A DNA stretch of 64,000 nt from IMG/VR virus record IMGVR_UViG_3300028654_000015, positions 14,368 through 78,367 of that record, one strand, 5' to 3'. The stretch's first letter is position 1; each line of letters begins with the position of its first letter. Below are positions 37,472-58,795 of this stretch, piece after piece. A program made the position numbers and the translations under genes. The DNA comes from a virus. The notes beneath the pieces were generated by a model. That model had not been told where the DNA came from, made no database searches, and saw only the letters and a list, made by a program, of their open reading frames with translations.

Positions 37472-38821
37472 ATGTCAAGCAAGAGAAAGACACTTAAAGA
37501 ACTGCGTGAAGGTCATGAAGAGAATCTTCCTACTCATGCTTCAGATGCAGGAAAAGAGGTTCCAGATTCCCTAAAAGGAAAACTTGGAAAGCGTCCCGCA
37601 AAAGCAGAACTTGATGGTATCGCTGTAGCAAATGCATCAGCAAAACACGGCAATGCACAAGGTGCACAATTGCCTTCAGAAGAAGATCTAGAAAAAGAAA
37701 GAGAAGCAATCCCACATGCTGAATTAGTAAAGACTGATGCTAAAAGAGGCAAATCTCCTATTCATGAAGCAGAATATCTTGATCGTGATAAAGATCTTTT
37801 GTTCAAGGAAAATGAAGATAATCCAGATATGGCTGACACAGGAAAACTTCATAGTGAAGCACCACATCATGATGCAAATTTACCAACTCATGCTAGTGCT
37901 GCGAGTTCAGAAGTTCCAGATTCTATGAAAGGAAAACTTGGTGATCGTAAACCTGCTCTTGAGCATGATATGAGCGATATGGATGATAAAAAAGATGAGA
38001 TGAACGAAGGAATGGATTCCGAAAAAGAAGAAATGGAAGACGAAAAAGATAGTGAAAAGAAAGAGAAAGAAGTAGATAAAAAAGAGATGAATGAACATCT
38101 TGCTGCTCTTACTCGTGGAGAAATTCTTCCTGAAGAATTCAAAACAAAAGCACAAACTCTTTTCGAGGCAGCAGTTCATGCTTCAGTAAAACGAAGAAGT
38201 GATGTTCAAAAGAAAAAGTTAAATGATAAGTACAAGAAAGCAGTTGCTTCTAAAAATAAAGAAATAACTGAAGCACTTGTAGAAAAAGTTGATGCATACC
38301 TCGACTACATTGTAGAAGAGTGGATGGAAGAAAATAAAGTTGCAGTTGAGTCTGGTTTAAAAACAGAAATTGTTGAGAAATTCATTGGTGGTCTAAAAGG
38401 ACTATTTGAATCTCATTATATTGAAATTCCAGAAACAAAAGAAGATCTTCTTGAAGTAGAACTAAAAAAGAGTGCAGAACTAGAAAAATCACTCAATGAA
38501 GAAATTGAAAGAGGAATTGCTTCAAAGAAGAAAATCGATTCTTTTGAAAAGAATGCAGTTGTGCGTTCTATTTCTGAAGATTTGAGTGATGTCCAAGTAT
38601 CAAAGTTACAAAAACTTTGTGAAGGAATCTCTTTTGAAAGTGCTGAACATTTTGCTCAGAAGGCAAAAACCATTAAAAATCATTATTTCCCTAAACCAAC
38701 AACCAAGAATGCAGAGGCAACTAATTCTGGATTGGTAGAAGGATCTGATGTTGGAAATGAAGCAAGTGCGCCAGAGATGGTTGCGTTGGCTGAAGCAATG
38801 TCAAAAATCGTGAAAAGATAA
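37472..38821 (+). CDS. gp22: Prohead scaffold gp22 with long N-terminal extension
   Basis: EEFKTKAQTLFEAAV, KVDAYLDYIVEEWMEENKVAVE.GLK, LFESHYI. Confidence 0.9.
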   Translation: MSSKRKTLKELREGHEENLPTHASDAGKEVPDSLKGKLGKRPAKAELDGIAVANASAKHGNAQGAQLPSEEDLEKEREAIPHAELVKTDAKRGKSPIHEAEYLDRDKDLLFKENEDNPDMADTGKLHSEAPHHDANLPTHASAASSEVPDSMKGKLGDRKPALEHDMSDMDDKKDEMNEGMDSEKEEMEDEKDSEKKEKEVDKKEMNEHLAALTRGEILPEEFKTKAQTLFEAAVHASVKRRSDVQKKKLNDKYKKAVASKNKEITEALVEKVDAYLDYIVEEWMEENKVAVESGLKTEIVEKFIGGLKGLFESHYIEIPETKEDLLEVELKKSAELEKSLNEEIERGIASKKKIDSFEKNAVVRSISEDLSDVQVSKLQKLCEGISFESAEHFAQKAKTIKNHYFPKPTTKNAEATNSGLVEGSDVGNEASAPEMVALAEAMSKIVKR

Positions 38822-38826
38822 GTAAA

Positions 38827-38834
38827 TATAAATA
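38827..38834 (+). promoter_or_regulatory. T4-type late promoter (TATAAATA)
   Basis: Exact consensus; AAGGAG RBS precedes g23. Confidence 0.85.
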
Positions 38835-38867: not shown

Positions 38868-40175
38868 ATGTATCTTTCTGAAGACCTTCAAAAGAAATGG
38901 GAATCGGTGCTAGAGCATCAGGATCTTCCCAAATTAAATTCACATAAGAAAGCAGTTCTTTCGGTTCTTCTTGAGAACCAAGAAAGAGAAACTCGCAACG
39001 ATGGAACAACCCGTTCTGGACTTCTCCAAGAAAGTTCGCCAGCAAATGCTAGTGCAGGGTTTCCAAATAACAACGCAAATCTAAAAGGTTATGATCCAGT
39101 TTTGATCTCTTTGATCAGACGTGCTCTTCCTAACCTAATCGCATTTGACGTGTGTGGCGTTCAGCCAATGAAGGCTCCCACGGGATTGATTTTTGCAATG
39201 AAGTCACGTTATACCTCACAAGGTGGAAACGAAGCATTATTCTTCGAAGCAGACAGTTCTTTCTCTGGTAATCTTCAAGATGCTAACTCATCTCCTCTTG
39301 ATCCATTTGGTCCTCCTACACCAGGTCGTCCTCTCACCACATCTGATGGTGAAGCATTGGGTGACGGTACTGCAACCTCTACCAAGCCTGCTCAATTCCC
39401 AGAAATGGCGTTCAGCATTGACAAGGTAACAGTTGAAGCAAAGACTCGTGCTCTTAAAGCAGAGTACACAATGGAAATCGCGCAAGATCTTAAAGCAGTA
39501 CACGGACTTGATGCTGAAGCAGAACTTGCGAATATTCTTTCAGCAGAAATTCTTGCTGAAATCAACCGAGAAATTATCCGTACTATTTACAACAACGCAG
39601 TACTTGGTGCACAGAATGATGTTGCAACCCCTGGTACTTTTGACCTTGATGTAGATTCAAACGGACGTTGGTCAGTTGAAAAGTACAAAGGTTTGATGGT
39701 TCAGATCGAAAGAGATGCTAACGCAATTGCGAAAGCAACTCGTAGAGGTCGTGGTAACTTCCTGATTTGCGATTCTGATACTGCTTCTGCTCTTTCAGTT
39801 GCAGGTCTTCTCGACATCGGAAGTGCTCTCAAAGATAATCTAAATGTTGATGATACTGGTAACACTTTTGTCGGTGTTCTTAACGGACGTTTCAAAGTGT
39901 TTATCGATCCATATGCAGTACTTGGTAGCAACTTCTATGTTTGCGGATTCAAGGGTGCAAATCAATACGATGCTGGTCTCTTTTACTGCCCTTACGTACC
40001 TCTTCAGATGGTTCGTGCTGTTGGTGAAGAAACTTTCCAACCTAAAATTGGATTCAAGACTCGTTATGGTATCGTAACTAACCCATTTGGTAATGCAAAT
40101 GGTAACTCAGACGGTTCTCTTGCACAAAGAGCAAACGTCTATTATCGTGCCGTGAAAGTACTTCATTTACTTTAG
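38868..40175 (+). CDS. gp23: Major capsid protein gp23
   Basis: LIRRALPNLIAFDVCGVQPM..PTGLIFA, AQDLKAVHGLDAEAEL, YCPYVPL, FQPKIGFKTRYG; likely gp21 cleavage site at LQE/S. Confidence 0.97.
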   Translation: MYLSEDLQKKWESVLEHQDLPKLNSHKKAVLSVLLENQERETRNDGTTRSGLLQESSPANASAGFPNNNANLKGYDPVLISLIRRALPNLIAFDVCGVQPMKAPTGLIFAMKSRYTSQGGNEALFFEADSSFSGNLQDANSSPLDPFGPPTPGRPLTTSDGEALGDGTATSTKPAQFPEMAFSIDKVTVEAKTRALKAEYTMEIAQDLKAVHGLDAEAELANILSAEILAEINREIIRTIYNNAVLGAQNDVATPGTFDLDVDSNGRWSVEKYKGLMVQIERDANAIAKATRRGRGNFLICDSDTASALSVAGLLDIGSALKDNLNVDDTGNTFVGVLNGRFKVFIDPYAVLGSNFYVCGFKGANQYDAGLFYCPYVPLQMVRAVGEETFQPKIGFKTRYGIVTNPFGNANGNSDGSLAQRANVYYRAVKVLHLL

Positions 40176-40206
40176 AAGTAATTTCAATAACTTAGAAATA
40201 AGTTTT

Positions 40207-40237
40207 AAAAATGGGTCCTTCGGGACCCATTTTTATT
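40207..40237 (+). terminator. Rho-independent terminator with UUCG tetraloop after g23
   Basis: AAAAATGGGTCC-TTCG-GGACCCATTTTT. Confidence 0.9.
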
Positions 40238-40244
40238 GGTTCTA

Positions 40245-40273
40245 TTGACGGAAAGAAAAACTTGTGTTATTCT
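40245..40273 (+). promoter_or_regulatory. Sigma70-like promoter TTGACG-N17-TATTCT
   Basis: Near-consensus hexamers with an extended -10 TG; ends 6 nt before ATG 40280. Confidence 0.65.
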
Positions 40274-40279
40274 AATAAC

Positions 40280-41635
40280 ATGAGAAAACCCAAACAATAT
40301 TATAATTCTATCACTAAAAAGATGATAGAAAATGATGTGGAAAATAATCTATCTCAATATGAGATTGCCAATAAGTATGGCATTACTAGACAATTTGTTA
40401 GAGATTTGTTTCATAAATTTGGAATTACAATATCAAATAGAAGAACACAACCACCAATAGATAAAGATATTCTAATAAAAGAAAATCATAAAAATCTATT
40501 AACCTTAAAACAAATTTCAGCAAAATATAATAGAACATATAAATCTATAAAGGATATGTTTAAGAAATATAACATATCACCCAAGAATAATGTAATTCAT
40601 AAAAATATTATAAAAAGAGAAGAAATATTAAATTCGATAGAACTAAATCAATTATATGGAAAATTAACAAAAATAGAAGTACAAAAACAATTAAATATTG
40701 GACAAAAATATTTGGATGAAGCACTAAAAGAAAAAAATATAGAGAGGAAATTCTTTAATAGATCTTCACAAGAAAAAGAACTTGAGGCACATTTGAAAGC
40801 AGTAATGCCAAATGAAACTATATTATCAAATGTTAAAAACATAATTTCAAAAGAAATAGATATATTTGTTCCTAATAAAAATGTTGGTATAGAATTGCAT
40901 GGGTTATATTGGCATAATCCTATAGTAAAAAATATTGGTAAGAAATATCATTACGATAAAGCCACAGAAGCACACCATAAAGATATACTATTGCTTCAGT
41001 TCTTTGAAGACGAATGGATATTAAAGAAAGAAATATGCAAATCTATTATATTAACAAATCTTGGAATATACCAAAAATTGTATGCGAGAAAATGTAGTAT
41101 TAAAATAATCACAAACCAAGAAACGAAAGAATTTTGTGAACATAACCATCTTCAAGGTCACACAAATGCTAGTGTTTGTCTTGGATTATATTATAATACA
41201 ACCTTAGTTTCTATAATGTCTTTTGGACGACCAAGATTTCATAAATCGGCACCAAAAGATCAATGGGAATTATTGCGATTTTGTTCTATATTGAACACCA
41301 AAGTTATTGGTGGTGCATCTAAATTATTTTCTTATTTTATTAATAATTTTAAACCGAAGCATATATATTCATATTCAGATAGAAGAATATCAAAAGGAGA
41401 TTTATATACGAAACTAAATTTCAAATTAGAAAAGATAACAGAACCGAATTATAGTTATATTGTAGGCAAACAAAGATCAAATAGAATGAATTGGCAAAAA
41501 AACAAATTGAAAACTAAATTAAAAATATTCGATCCAAACTTAACAGAAATCGAAAATATGGTTCTTAACAAGTACTTTCCAATATACGATGCAGGAAATA
41601 TATTATGGTCATGGTCAAATGAAAATAAATCTTAA
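40280..41635 (+). CDS. Hef-like free-standing homing endonuclease
   Basis: N-terminal HTH-like repeats, EIDIF...GIELHGLYWH...FEDEW nuclease motif, C-terminal YARKC/ELLRFCS/GGASKL/YSDRR domain; start moved downstream of the terminator. Confidence 0.7.
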   Translation: MRKPKQYYNSITKKMIENDVENNLSQYEIANKYGITRQFVRDLFHKFGITISNRRTQPPIDKDILIKENHKNLLTLKQISAKYNRTYKSIKDMFKKYNISPKNNVIHKNIIKREEILNSIELNQLYGKLTKIEVQKQLNIGQKYLDEALKEKNIERKFFNRSSQEKELEAHLKAVMPNETILSNVKNIISKEIDIFVPNKNVGIELHGLYWHNPIVKNIGKKYHYDKATEAHHKDILLLQFFEDEWILKKEICKSIILTNLGIYQKLYARKCSIKIITNQETKEFCEHNHLQGHTNASVCLGLYYNTTLVSIMSFGRPRFHKSAPKDQWELLRFCSILNTKVIGGASKLFSYFINNFKPKHIYSYSDRRISKGDLYTKLNFKLEKITEPNYSYIVGKQRSNRMNWQKNKLKTKLKIFDPNLTEIENMVLNKYFPIYDAGNILWSWSNENKS

Positions 41636-44043: not shown

Positions 44044-44280
44044 ATGAAGGTTCCAAATTGGTTAATGACCATCAAAGAAGGTGATGAGTTAATTTTGTAT
44101 TTTCCCTATACAGGGGATCTAGTTAATGCTAAAGTATTAACCAAACAAGATCACATGAATGGATTTTGTGCGAAATATAAAATAAAAGACTTAAATTTTA
44201 GTAAATGGTTGTTCTATGCAGATTATGCAAATGATGATGCAAATTCTATGAAGTGGTTAGCATATGAAGTCTCAAAATGA
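44044..44280 (+). CDS. Hypothetical protein
   Basis: ORF in a tightly packed operon. Confidence 0.5.
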   Translation: MKVPNWLMTIKEGDELILYFPYTGDLVNAKVLTKQDHMNGFCAKYKIKDLNFSKWLFYADYANDDANSMKWLAYEVSK

Positions 44281-44461
44281 AAAAATGATTGCATGGAATC
44301 CTAAAACTGTCATAGGAATGGGAGATAAATGTAGAGTGCTAGATGGTACATTTACTGGCATTCTTAATGATCGTTTAATAGTTTTTGTTGACCCATATAC
44401 ACTTAGAGATGAAACTATAGAAGAATCTAGAAAAAGATTGGTAAATCATAATGAAGATTAA
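44264..44461 (+). CDS. Hypothetical protein
   Basis: ORF in a tightly packed operon. Confidence 0.45.
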   Translation: MKSQNEKMIAWNPKTVIGMGDKCRVLDGTFTGILNDRLIVFVDPYTLRDETIEESRKRLVNHNED

Positions 44462-44463
44462 AC

Positions 44464-44844
44464 ATGAAGTTAATAATAGCAGGTTCTAGAAATTATAATA
44501 ATTATAATTTCATCAAAGAATCAGTTCAAAATATAATGAGAGAGTCTTATAATTCTGGTATTGCATTACAGATCGAAAGTATAGTTTCTGGTGGTGCTAA
44601 TGGTGTTGATAAATTAGGAGAACAGTTTGCTAAAGAATTCAATATACCATGTATTGTATTTCCTGCTAATTGGTCAAAACATGGTAAAGCGGCAGGACCA
44701 ATAAGAAACAAAGAAATGGCAGAATTTGCAGATACATTGATAGCATTTCCAGATATGAAAAGTATTGGAACTATTAATATGATTACAACCATGAAAAATT
44801 TAAACAAAAAAGTATATGTAGTGGAAATTAAAGATGTTAAATGA
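44464..44844 (+). CDS. SLOG-family protein (DUF2493/YspA-like)
   Basis: IIAGSR, IVSGGANGVD, PANW..HGKAAGPIRN.EMA, S.GT..MI. Confidence 0.85.
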   Translation: MKLIIAGSRNYNNYNFIKESVQNIMRESYNSGIALQIESIVSGGANGVDKLGEQFAKEFNIPCIVFPANWSKHGKAAGPIRNKEMAEFADTLIAFPDMKSIGTINMITTMKNLNKKVYVVEIKDVK

Positions 44845-44998
44845 CCTTGACGAGGAATTGATAAAATATTTGCTTCCAGATATGGAAATAAGAGAATATG
44901 CTATAAAACTAGCAAAAGAAGTTCTAGAAGAAATACGACTAGATTCTATAAGAATAGAATCAAAGAAAGCATGGCAACAACATGAAAATGGAGATTGA
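44834..44998 (+). CDS. Small helical hypothetical protein; absent from the ORF track
   Basis: 54 aa MLNDLDEELIKYLLPDMEIREYAIKLAKEVLEEIRLDSIRIESKKAWQQHENGD; overlaps both neighbours. Confidence 0.55.
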   Translation: MLNDLDEELIKYLLPDMEIREYAIKLAKEVLEEIRLDSIRIESKKAWQQHENGD

Positions 44999-45203
44999 AT
45001 CATATCAAGAACTACAAGCAATTCATGGATTAGATGCACAAAATGAATTGGTGAAAATTCTTTCGGATGAAATTCTTGCAGAAATTAATAGAGAAGTAAT
45101 TAGAACAATATATAATGAAGAAAGACATGAATACTATTATGAATTTCAAAAACAAAAACGTAATGATATAATAATATGGTGTGATCATGAGAATGGAGAA
45201 TGA
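44982..45203 (+). CDS. Mini-protein homologous to gp23 residues 206-242
   Basis: QELQAIHGLDAQNELVKILSDEILAEINREVIRTIYN versus gp23 QDLKAVHGLDAEAELANILSAEILAEINREIIRTIYN, 28/37 identical. Confidence 0.85.
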   Translation: MKMEIESYQELQAIHGLDAQNELVKILSDEILAEINREVIRTIYNEERHEYYYEFQKQKRNDIIIWCDHENGE

Positions 45204-45391
45204 GAATCCATAAAATTATAGACTATATAATGAGAAGGGCAAATGAAGCATCTTGTTTGGGACAAGAATTTAATAAAGATTTATTATTAGATATAGAATT
45301 GAGTAGATTTGATGAATATGCAAATGAATTATTAAATATATTATATGAAGAAATATCATACAATTGGTATACAAATCATATTGGAGAATAA
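45200..45391 (+). CDS. Small hypothetical protein, weakly similar to the upstream mini-ORFs
   Basis: ATGA overlap with 44982-45203; contains ANELLNILYEEI and ends HIGE. Confidence 0.55.
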   Translation: MRIHKIIDYIMRRANEASCLGQEFNKDLLLDIELSRFDEYANELLNILYEEISYNWYTNHIGE

Positions 45392-45393
45392 TA

Positions 45394-45831
45394 ATGGCTA
45401 CCTTAGAAGAACTAGAAAATGAATGGTCTAAAGATTGTAAGATAGATAGAACAAATCTAGATGGCGAATCTTTAAAAATACCGGAACTTCACAATAAGTA
45501 CTACAAACTCTATATAAGAGAACGTGTACAATTCAAACAAGATGAATTCACTTTAGATGAATTCCTAAAAACAAAAACTCAGTATTACCAAGGTAAACTA
45601 GATAAACAAACTCTAGATGAAAATAAGTGGGAACCATTTGATTTGATACTAATAAAACAAGATTTAGATCTATATCTAGATGCAGATAAAGATATAATCA
45701 AAAGAAAATTGAAAATGCATCTTCAAAAAGAAAAAGTAGAATTTCTTGAGAGTATAATCAAAACAATCAATAATAGATCCTTTATTATTCGTGATGCTCT
45801 CGAATTTATTAAGTTTTCTAGTGGCAAATAA
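45394..45831 (+). CDS. uvsY: Recombination mediator UvsY
   Basis: W.KDCKID..NLD.ESLKIPELHNKY, YLDAD.D, R.F.I..A.EF.KF; ATG 45394 after GGAG. Confidence 0.9.
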   Translation: MATLEELENEWSKDCKIDRTNLDGESLKIPELHNKYYKLYIRERVQFKQDEFTLDEFLKTKTQYYQGKLDKQTLDENKWEPFDLILIKQDLDLYLDADKDIIKRKLKMHLQKEKVEFLESIIKTINNRSFIIRDALEFIKFSSGK

Positions 45832-57784: not shown

Positions 57785-58795
57785 ATGAAAAAGAAACACA
57801 CCCCTACCAAAGCATCTGATGCTATTATCAATATGTCTACTTCATTAGAAGATAGTCTAATACCAAGCAAGAATAATTTATTCATTGAATTTGGGCATTA
57901 TGATGATATTTCTAGAATTATTAATTCGAAGATTTTTTACCCAATTTTCATTACTGGATTGTCTGGTAATGGTAAAACTTTCATGGTTGAACAATCATGT
58001 GCAGAACAAAATCGTGAATTATTCAGAGTAAACATTACAATTGAAACTGATGAAGATGATCTTCTAGGTGGATTTAGATTAGTACAAGATTCTACGAAAT
58101 GGTTTGATGGTCCAGTAATTAGGGCAATGAAAACTGGAGGAATTCTACTACTAGACGAAGTAGATCTTGCTTCAACTAAGATTATGTGTTTACAACCAGT
58201 TTTGGAAGGAAAAGGTATCTTCTTAAAGAAGATCAATCAATATGTGAAACCTGCACCTGGATTCAATGTTGTTGCAACAGCAAATACAAAGGGTCAAGGA
58301 AATGAAACTGGTAAATTTGTAGGTACGAATCTTTTGAATGAAGCATTTCTGGAAAGATTTCCAATTACATTTGAACAAGAATATCCTCAAACGGATGTTG
58401 AAAAGAAGATATTACAAAAGATTTTTGCATCTGGTGGTTTGCGTCCAAAAGAAGAAAAAGATTTTATTAATTTATTGGTCTCTTGGGCAGGTACTAATAG
58501 ACAGAGTTTCATGAATGGTGCTGCCACAGAAGTAATTTCTACTAGACGATTGGTTCATATTGCTAATGCATATATTATTTTCAAGGAAAAGGAAAAAATT
58601 GAAGAAGGATTCAATGCAAAACATAAAGCATTGGATTTGTGTTTGTCTAGATTTGATAGTATTACAAAATCATCTCTAATTACTCTTTATAATTCTTTGG
58701 ATGCAAATATGAATAATCCAAATCCAAAGAAGGATGAAGCAGAACCACTAGCAGCAACAGTGGATGAGATTGAATCTTTGTTTGGTACTAATTAA
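57785..58795 (+). CDS. cobS: MoxR-type AAA+ ATPase (CobS-like)
   Basis: GLSGNGKT, LLLDEVD, ATANTKG, NEAFLERF, ISTRRLV. Confidence 0.85.
   Translation: MKKKHTPTKASDAIINMSTSLEDSLIPSKNNLFIEFGHYDDISRIINSKIFYPIFITGLSGNGKTFMVEQSCAEQNRELFRVNITIETDEDDLLGGFRLVQDSTKWFDGPVIRAMKTGGILLLDEVDLASTKIMCLQPVLEGKGIFLKKINQYVKPAPGFNVVATANTKGQGNETGKFVGTNLLNEAFLERFPITFEQEYPQTDVEKKILQKIFASGGLRPKEEKDFINLLVSWAGTNRQSFMNGAATEVISTRRLVHIANAYIIFKEKEKIEEGFNAKHKALDLCLSRFDSITKSSLITLYNSLDANMNNPNPKKDEAEPLAATVDEIESLFGTN

Follow-up and report, generated by a model that had tools for sequence, protein, structure and literature searches.

A free-standing excerpt of the major capsid gene in the hypervariable slot upstream of uvsY of an uncultured T4-like phage

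Host proteins read short conserved parts of unassembled capsid protein in Gol-Lit-EF-Tu exclusion and in the CapRel, Avs7 and Dsr1 systems. Gol lies in the first quarter of gp23 (PMC3014915), in CapRel the predicted contacts of the sensor are with the spine helix and P-domain sheet of the capsid protein, whose binding activates the toxin (PMC9712102), and gp31-bypass mutations of T4 map to the spine helix and P sheet (PMC9546572). Modular shuffling by PeSL elements has been described for the hyperplastic regions of T4-like phages (Comeau, Arbiol and Krisch 2014, PMC4122927). In Bodo saltans virus, ankyrin-repeat genes carry fragments of essential genes, for which a decoy role was proposed without experimental test (Deeg et al. 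2018, PMC5871332).

In the phage analysed here, a 73-aa mini-ORF (B) between g23 and uvsY carries a segment of the major capsid protein (MCP) outside any capsid gene. B had been singled out in an earlier note as a candidate capsid decoy or mimic. If it and a second such mini-ORF described below (Z) were functional, the virus would re-use short pieces of its own shell protein as free-standing tools; no published description of such a kind of gene was found for phages.

Gene order and the mini-ORF array upstream of uvsY

The source was a 78-kb IMG/VR virus record, estimated to be 44% complete, from an uncultured, low-GC T4-like myovirus, and coordinates refer to the 64-kb stretch of that record which was analysed (the window). 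The mini-ORFs and their parts, the junction cassettes, g23 and its segments, the SLOG/YspA-like gene and uvsY are all on the + strand. No close relative was found among GenBank phages; the nearest IMG/VR relatives by MCP identity were two loci, L009 (76%) and L010 (70%).

Genes in the window are ordered g22 scaffold, g23, terminator hairpin, homing-endonuclease-like gene, RnlA-like ligase and gp19-like protein, followed by a series of small ORFs and then by uvsY and uvsW. The MCP gene g23 (38868..40175, 435 aa; PF07068, E 1.5e-134) has a late promoter motif at 38827. This motif, TATAAATA, is strongly depleted (4 observed vs 14 expected); its four copies in the window (26891, 36586, 37430 and 38827) are all found a short way before a late gene, so that in this phage the motif serves as a clean marker of late promoters. 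It is absent from the small-ORF cluster, and sigma-70-like matches were not above shuffled expectation (62 vs 53.7 +/- 7.3). The strong terminator hairpin (40206-40235) is the sole terminator-like hairpin in 40-48.2 kb, so that none lies in 44-45.4 kb, and the mini-ORF region gave no match to an Rfam family. Because the small ORFs follow the g23 terminator, lack late promoters and have overlapping starts, they would be expressed with uvsY and uvsW, and B would be translated, and timed, with that cluster as a ~9-kDa, probably all-helical peptide.

Several features of the flanking genes were recorded separately. The hairpin right after g23, a perfect one of 13 bp, overlaps the first ATG of the 474-aa homing-endonuclease-like ORF (window 40206-41635; phrog_3339, E 5e-96), whose true start is probably downstream, near 40280. 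The C-terminal half of this ORF gave a weak Mom-family match (PF25680, 27.6 bits), and GC falls to 22% at the ORF vs 42-47% in g23. The RnlA-type RNA ligase (PF09511, 41589-42707) shares the variable stretch between g23 and uvsY with the SLOG/YspA-like gene. The g22-like scaffold protein (449 aa, 37472-38821) has a long N-terminal extension, relatives matching residues 209-449 only, in which a ~22-residue motif starting NLPTHAS occurs twice (roughly aa 19-40 and 137-158).

Downstream, uvsY (45394..45831; PF11056, E 1.9e-26; present in 56 related loci) is the conserved anchor of a hypervariable slot. Between uvsY and a conserved 78-aa ORF or SLOG gene, the relatives examined (L009, L010 and L012-L015) carry different genes or no genes, and Z, A, B and C were found in none of them. 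In this phage, mini-ORF Z (44264..44461, 65 aa) is followed by the SLOG/YspA-like gene (44464..44844; PF10686, E 4.8e-13), whose position is conserved in L009 and L010 (tblastn matches in both), and then by a trio of mini-ORFs: A (44834..44998, 54 aa), B (44982..45203, 73 aa) and C (45200..45391, 63 aa), the last immediately upstream of uvsY. B overlaps A by 17 nt and C by ATGA, in agreement with its earlier description as a free-standing, intact, g23-derived ORF. Because ORFs of at least 50 codons cover 99% of 44834-45391, a coverage reached in 0/5000 Markov simulations, A, B and C are not random ORFs. No Pfam domain besides Gp23 was found in B, and none at all in A, C or Z. No Shine-Dalgarno motif precedes either candidate ATG of B, and most genes in the cluster also lack one.

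The four mini-ORFs end alike. The end motif H-x(1-2)-[GE]-[DE]-stop closes 4/1032 open stretches of the genome, which are Z, A, B and C (A: aa 47-54, nt 44972-44995; B: aa 66-73, nt 45177-45200; C: aa 56-63, nt 45365-45388). In other loci it closes 8/12,982 open stretches; L009 and L010, the closest relatives, account for two of the eight, in each case with the ORF that immediately precedes uvsY. These two ORFs end in HHNED (L009, 6825-8073; L010, 2741-4135) on bodies that differ, the L009 ORF having 47 aa and the L010 protein 148 aa. It is with the uvsY boundary, and not with a protein family, that the conserved end module moves.

At the DNA level the shared end corresponds to a junction cassette of ~20 nt, in which the last codons overlap a uvsY-type ATG; this overlap is seen in L010 and at the A/B junction. 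Four copies were delimited. The outer two, found as a repeat family and by alignment, span the Z end, stop and SLOG gene start (44443..44466) and the C end, stop and uvsY start (45373..45396). The inner two, found by an 18-nt pattern and by alignment, span the A end overlapping the B start (44981..44998) and the B end overlapping the C start (45186..45203). The 18-nt pattern occurs within the 64 kb only at 44981 and 45186, with 2/18 nt differing between the A/B and B/C copies, and the cassette copies are far more similar to one another than are the ORF bodies. Conservation of the end cassette may be at the nucleotide level, in the role of a start region, instead of as a peptide tag.

A and C are probably paralogues, judged by an alignment p of about 0.003-0.006 vs shuffles. 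Both were also tried as excerpts of the capsid helix that is found in B and were rejected as unproven: hhalign gave E of about 0.036, equalled by 3-4/150 shuffles (for A, E 0.037 and 3/150, not significant), so that the weak resemblance of both is at noise level. One third of the shuffles in these tests also landed on the helix, and the registers of the A-MCP, C-MCP and A-C alignments disagree by four residues. C shares a stretch with LSRFD with the lid region of an AAA_5 ATPase (57785-58792; 18/54 identities, pairwise E 4e-4); as an excerpt of that ATPase it was rejected, the match being at noise level after multiple testing and against the family profile. No relatives of C were found in IMG/VR.

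Capsid excerpts in B and Z

Residues 9-45 of B align to MCP residues 206-242 with 28/37 identities, and the codon differs at 16/28 conserved residues; these figures, given in the earlier note, were reproduced throughout. Nucleotide identity over the same residues is 78/111. By BLASTP the match extends over B residues 5-45 and MCP residues 202-242 (29/41 identities, gapless, E 4e-18), and at the DNA level no direct repeat in 38.8-46 kb is larger (110 nt, 71%). Pfam Gp23 (PF07068) scored 50 bits on B against a gathering cut-off of 24.4 (E 4e-13, profile positions 156-197/376), and an HMM of 85 MCPs, run against 2347 six-frame pieces of the window, picked out B at E 1.3e-17. The excerpt maps to T4 gp23 271-310 of 521, which is the spine helix, as had been claimed. 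A PDB search with B returned gp23 at E 7e-6 and gp24 at E 0.8. AF2 modelled B from its single sequence as one long helix (best model pLDDT 83, with disagreement among the five models); for the resident MCP it placed helices at 193-212 and 216-250, at low confidence (pLDDT 51). The resident counterpart of the excerpt, g23 aa 202-242, lies at nt 39471-39593.

B is read as a composite: a uvsY-like start (aa 1-5) resembling the UvsY N-terminus of relatives, the spine-helix excerpt (aa 5-45, nt 44994-45116), within which aa 30-44 (nt 45069-45113) equal the MCP consensus, a unique linker (aa 46-65) and the shared end tag. A 10-mer, ATAATGAAGA, occurs in 5 copies vs 0.8 expected (44448, 45112, 54180 and 56598 on the + strand, 28810 on the - strand). 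One of these sits within B, exactly where the g23 homology stops, and may be left over from another junction or start cassette, or may represent no more than a common start context.

B covers only 42 of about 376 Gp23 profile positions and so does not make up a complete capsid fold (N-arm, E-loop, P and A domains, ~400 aa); on these matches it is an excerpt and not a capsid protein. It is neither full-length nor closer to gp24, as a gp24-type vertex paralogue would be. Nor does it contain the 29-residue Gol region; the link to Lit drawn in the earlier note falls away, Gol being in the first quarter of gp23 (PMC3014915) and B at T4 271-310.

A second excerpt, which that note had missed together with the shared end cassette and the hypervariable uvsY slot, is carried by Z. 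Residues 28-46 of Z (nt 44345-44401) match MCP aa 332-350 (nt 39861-39917), a beta-hairpin predicted in a low-confidence model. In hhalign against the MCP profile the match reached E 3.5e-6 at 58% identity, a score attained by 0/150 shuffles, and in the 85-MCP HMM scan Z (E 1.3e-3 among the 2347 pieces) was the sole further piece picked out besides B. When 487 small and 49 large ORFs of the 78-kb genome were compared all against all, only B and Z matched a large protein convincingly, and for both this protein was the MCP; the g23 family is the origin of both excerpts. The Z excerpt maps to T4 gp23 411-429. The AP loop (384-400) precedes this segment and the AP linker (486-502) follows it, and P-sheet residue 455 falls in the interval from loop to linker; from the order of domains in T4 gp23 we infer that both excerpts come from the P domain. 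Nearly all family-invariant capsid residues are retained in them.

Residues 47-65 of Z, comprising its tail and end tag, are shared with the 47-aa ORF upstream of uvsY in L009 (12/19 over the last 19 residues, E 8e-6), the bodies of the two ORFs being unrelated. The tails differ at synonymous sites and the peptide is conserved; UvsY of this phage and that of L009 are only 54% identical. The L009 ORF was also considered as a diverged hairpin excerpt, and the comparison gave no support.

Two fragments of one family within 750 nt could be what is left of a second capsid gene that has decayed, whether a duplicate of g23 or a vertex paralogue of the g24 type. In T4, g24 sits between g23 and uvsY, the position in which the fragments are found, and the window lacks a g24. 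The fragments are not colinear, however: the aa 332-350 piece lies upstream of the aa 202-242 piece, and the SLOG gene, conserved in relatives, separates them. No other part of the MCP profile was found anywhere in the window, B is far closer to gp23 than to gp24 by the E values above, and 71% identity in one segment with total loss elsewhere misfits uniform decay. Decay of a paralogue is largely refuted, and we regard it as barely credible.

It may also be the nucleic acid that is conserved and not any peptide, the cassette being a copy of the translation-initiation or regulatory region of uvsY, the mini-ORFs ferrying ribosomes by coupling and the g23-like codons serving as filler. The overlap of the cassette end with a uvsY-type ATG (L010, A/B junction), the resemblance of the first residues of B to the UvsY N-terminus of relatives and the greater likeness of the cassettes than of the ORF bodies would all be expected on this account. 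It leaves unexplained why filler should keep capsid-invariant residues in frame, it does not fit the tail shared by Z and L009, in which synonymous differences accompany a conserved peptide, and neither an Rfam family nor a terminator-like structure was found; we consider it quite improbable.

The account that we prefer, with an even chance of being right in our judgement, is that B is a real, lineage-specific chimeric mini-gene built by cassettes in the uvsY slot. The junction cassette (last ORF codons ending H-x-[GE]-[DE], stop, uvsY-type start) would have been copied four times upstream of uvsY, each copy closing one of the mini-ORFs Z, A, B and C and providing the start region of the next gene. 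Repeated recombination at the cassette would have built the array in the uvsY hot spot, and two of the bodies would have taken in pieces of a T4-type capsid gene, ~40 codons of the spine helix in B and ~19 codons of the hairpin in Z.

No orthologue of B, Z or C was found in IMG/VR, JGI metagenomes or 5.8 billion proteins, which also held no homologue of Z. A near-length protein search with B returned only B itself and three MCPs with a truncation or frameshift; in longer proteins, identity to B residues 5-48 rose no higher than 73%, in the best of the MCPs. Scans of IMG/VR and the JGI metagenomes with B recovered full-length g23 genes only. B and Z are also present, identical, on a second contig of 113,894 bp. 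No second g23 copy was found beside other g23 genes in 86 loci, no free-standing copy in ~200 other g23 loci, and an atlas search gave just a cluster of ~100-aa Gp23 pieces that are probably partial sequences. A 99-aa ORF (P0002) on a 273,419-bp contig has a Gp23 domain corresponding to about MCP residues 160-245, beyond which its sequence is unrelated; either this is a capsid gene with a frameshift, or a very large phage carries a further free-standing excerpt gene.

Divergence, donor and selection

Synonymous sites were saturated both between B and the MCPs (pS 0.79) and among the 85 MCPs themselves (pS 0.73). The heavy silent divergence that had been put forward as a sign of selection is therefore uninformative, any two g23 genes being equally saturated. 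For similar finds the caution is that a protein kept despite divergent codons does not amount to selection when its family is saturated at silent sites. The non-synonymous distance of B to the MCPs is about twice that between MCPs (0.19 vs 0.10).

Donors were sought among GenBank phages and 206 IMG/VR g23 segments, including 123 chosen for shared rare AGA codons. B is 67.5% identical to the resident g23 at the nucleotide level, no closer than to foreign g23 (best 78%), and no g23 above 78% was found in this set. A codon-specific DNA pattern searched in IMG/VR returned 123 AT-rich g23 segments, the best at 77.8%, with no short ORF among them. The resident gene is not demonstrably the source of the excerpt. 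In the segment of B, the resident, functional g23 itself has its nearest sampled neighbour at only 82%, and because it has none above that value, an unsampled g23 donor plus roughly 10% drift explains the pattern equally well. The earlier note had itself voiced the reservation that capture from another phage's g23 could give a similar pattern; the near-identity to another phage's g23 that it had named as the mark of a recent scar was not seen among GenBank phages or in the 206 segments.

Such a scar could have been left very recently by the g23 of another phage, for example one dragged in by the homing endonuclease beside g23. The phrog_3339 gene lies directly after g23, and B is no closer to the resident than to foreign g23, both of which speak for this reading. 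The missing donor above 78% and nine private amino-acid changes tell against it, as does the site of the copy: 4.8 kb separate it from the endonuclease, and its borders are those of the uvsY-type cassette instead of endonuclease flanks; we judge it very improbable. Because of its nine private replacements and a best nucleotide identity of 78% in the set searched, B is not a fresh scar; nor is it a decaying capsid gene.

None of these nine replacements occurs in any of more than 200 MCPs. They are confined to aa 7-29, and aa 30-44 are MCP consensus (hypergeometric p about 0.005, the boundaries having been set post hoc), an uneven spread that hints at constraint. MCP-invariant positions are replaced in B (A to Y, D to E, K to Q, E to Q), as would be expected under relaxed constraint. 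That the frame stayed open under neutrality is only mildly improbable (P 0.05-0.22 for 10-20% divergence). Clustered replacements, an intact frame and tiling ORFs together make modest evidence of selection on the peptide, and we put the chance that the B peptide is under selection at roughly one half.

The strongest competitor to a built mini-gene is a functionless by-product. Illegitimate recombination in the uvsY hot spot would have caught g23 pieces of an unsampled co-infecting T4-like phage, and the ORFs would be open because they are young, with ~10% drift, being either untranslated or translated without consequence. This would account for orphans in a hypervariable slot and for nine private replacements at otherwise invariant MCP positions, and it is not contradicted by the saturated synonymous sites, given a resident g23 without a sampled neighbour above 82%. 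The 2/18 nt that separate the A/B and B/C cassettes are similar to the private divergence of B, and the Shine-Dalgarno motif is absent. Less readily explained are two independent captures from a 1.3-kb capsid gene that both fall among its most conserved motifs, clustered private changes that spare a 15-residue consensus block, three ORFs that tile the region exactly on the coding strand, and a Z tail and tag conserved with L009 across a split at which UvsY is 54% identical. We give the by-product account appreciable credence, below that of the cassette-built mini-gene.

Candidate functions and known systems

If B acts, the natural mechanism would be mimicry of unassembled capsid protein through its conserved face, a function that we put forward as unlikely overall. 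Candidate partners of the mimic would be the P-domain sheet of nascent gp23, the chaperonin step or a host capsid sensor. Within the preferred account of a chimeric mini-gene, the rest of the weight goes to B as a translated young ORFan with no capsid-specific job. B and Z might also form an early-made, end-tagged mimicry set displaying the spine helix and the P-sheet hairpin, the pair of P-domain elements with the strongest conservation; this too is doubtful, to much the same degree. Such a set would engage a reader of unassembled capsid protein, possibly the folding machinery, the capsid protein of a rival co-infecting phage, or a capsid-sensing immune receptor of the host that is bound but not activated. 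We know of no capsid sensor of this kind for the host of this phage.

CapRel, which had been cited as a defence triggered by major capsid proteins, is pertinent because of the contacts predicted for its sensor, on the spine helix and P-domain sheet, but capsid binding activates its toxin (PMC9712102). Since binding of the CapRel type activates the toxin, a simple decoy would trigger it, and a protective decoy must bind without activating.

A functional role, if true, would bear on bacterial capsid sensing (CapRel, Avs7, Dsr1, Lit) and its blunting by phages, and on interference between the head assembly of related phages. Even without function, the locus is a clean, datable example of T4-like phages building new small genes, by a route in which coding pieces, foreign or paralogous, are captured at a coding junction repeated upstream of uvsY.

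Compared with the T4-type capsid proteins gp23 and gp24 (PF07068, HK97 fold; PDB 5vf3, 6uzc, 7vs5, 1yue), B residues 5-45 correspond to gp23 271-310 and Z residues 28-46 to 411-429. B and Z hold only 42 and 19 of about 376 profile positions, however, and have no A domain, E-loop, N-arm or P sheet, so that they cannot form a capsomer; they are also fused to unrelated tails and to the shared end cassette. What the Gol, CapRel, Avs7 and Dsr1 systems share with the locus is a short, conserved capsid part, which there is read by host proteins and in the prediction for CapRel lies on the spine helix and P-domain sheet. The locus differs in that the capsid element in those systems switches the defence on, a free copy being harmful unless non-activating, and Gol, in the first quarter of gp23, is outside the segment in B.

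As in PeSL shuffling, small ORFs that differ from lineage to lineage come and go between conserved core genes, with short repeats at their boundaries, and a hyperplastic slot with a short repeat is present. Flanks of promoter plus stem-loop terminator were not found: the boundary here is a coding junction (ORF end, stop, next start) and not an early promoter and stem-loop terminator, and what is carried is part of a structural gene of the phage's own kind. The genes of Bodo saltans virus belong to a eukaryotic giant virus and carry fragments from catalytic domains on an ankyrin-repeat module, whereas B is not an ankyrin-repeat fusion and the common part here is an 8-residue end motif without a Pfam domain; in both, an expanded gene array joins fragments of essential viral genes to a shared module.
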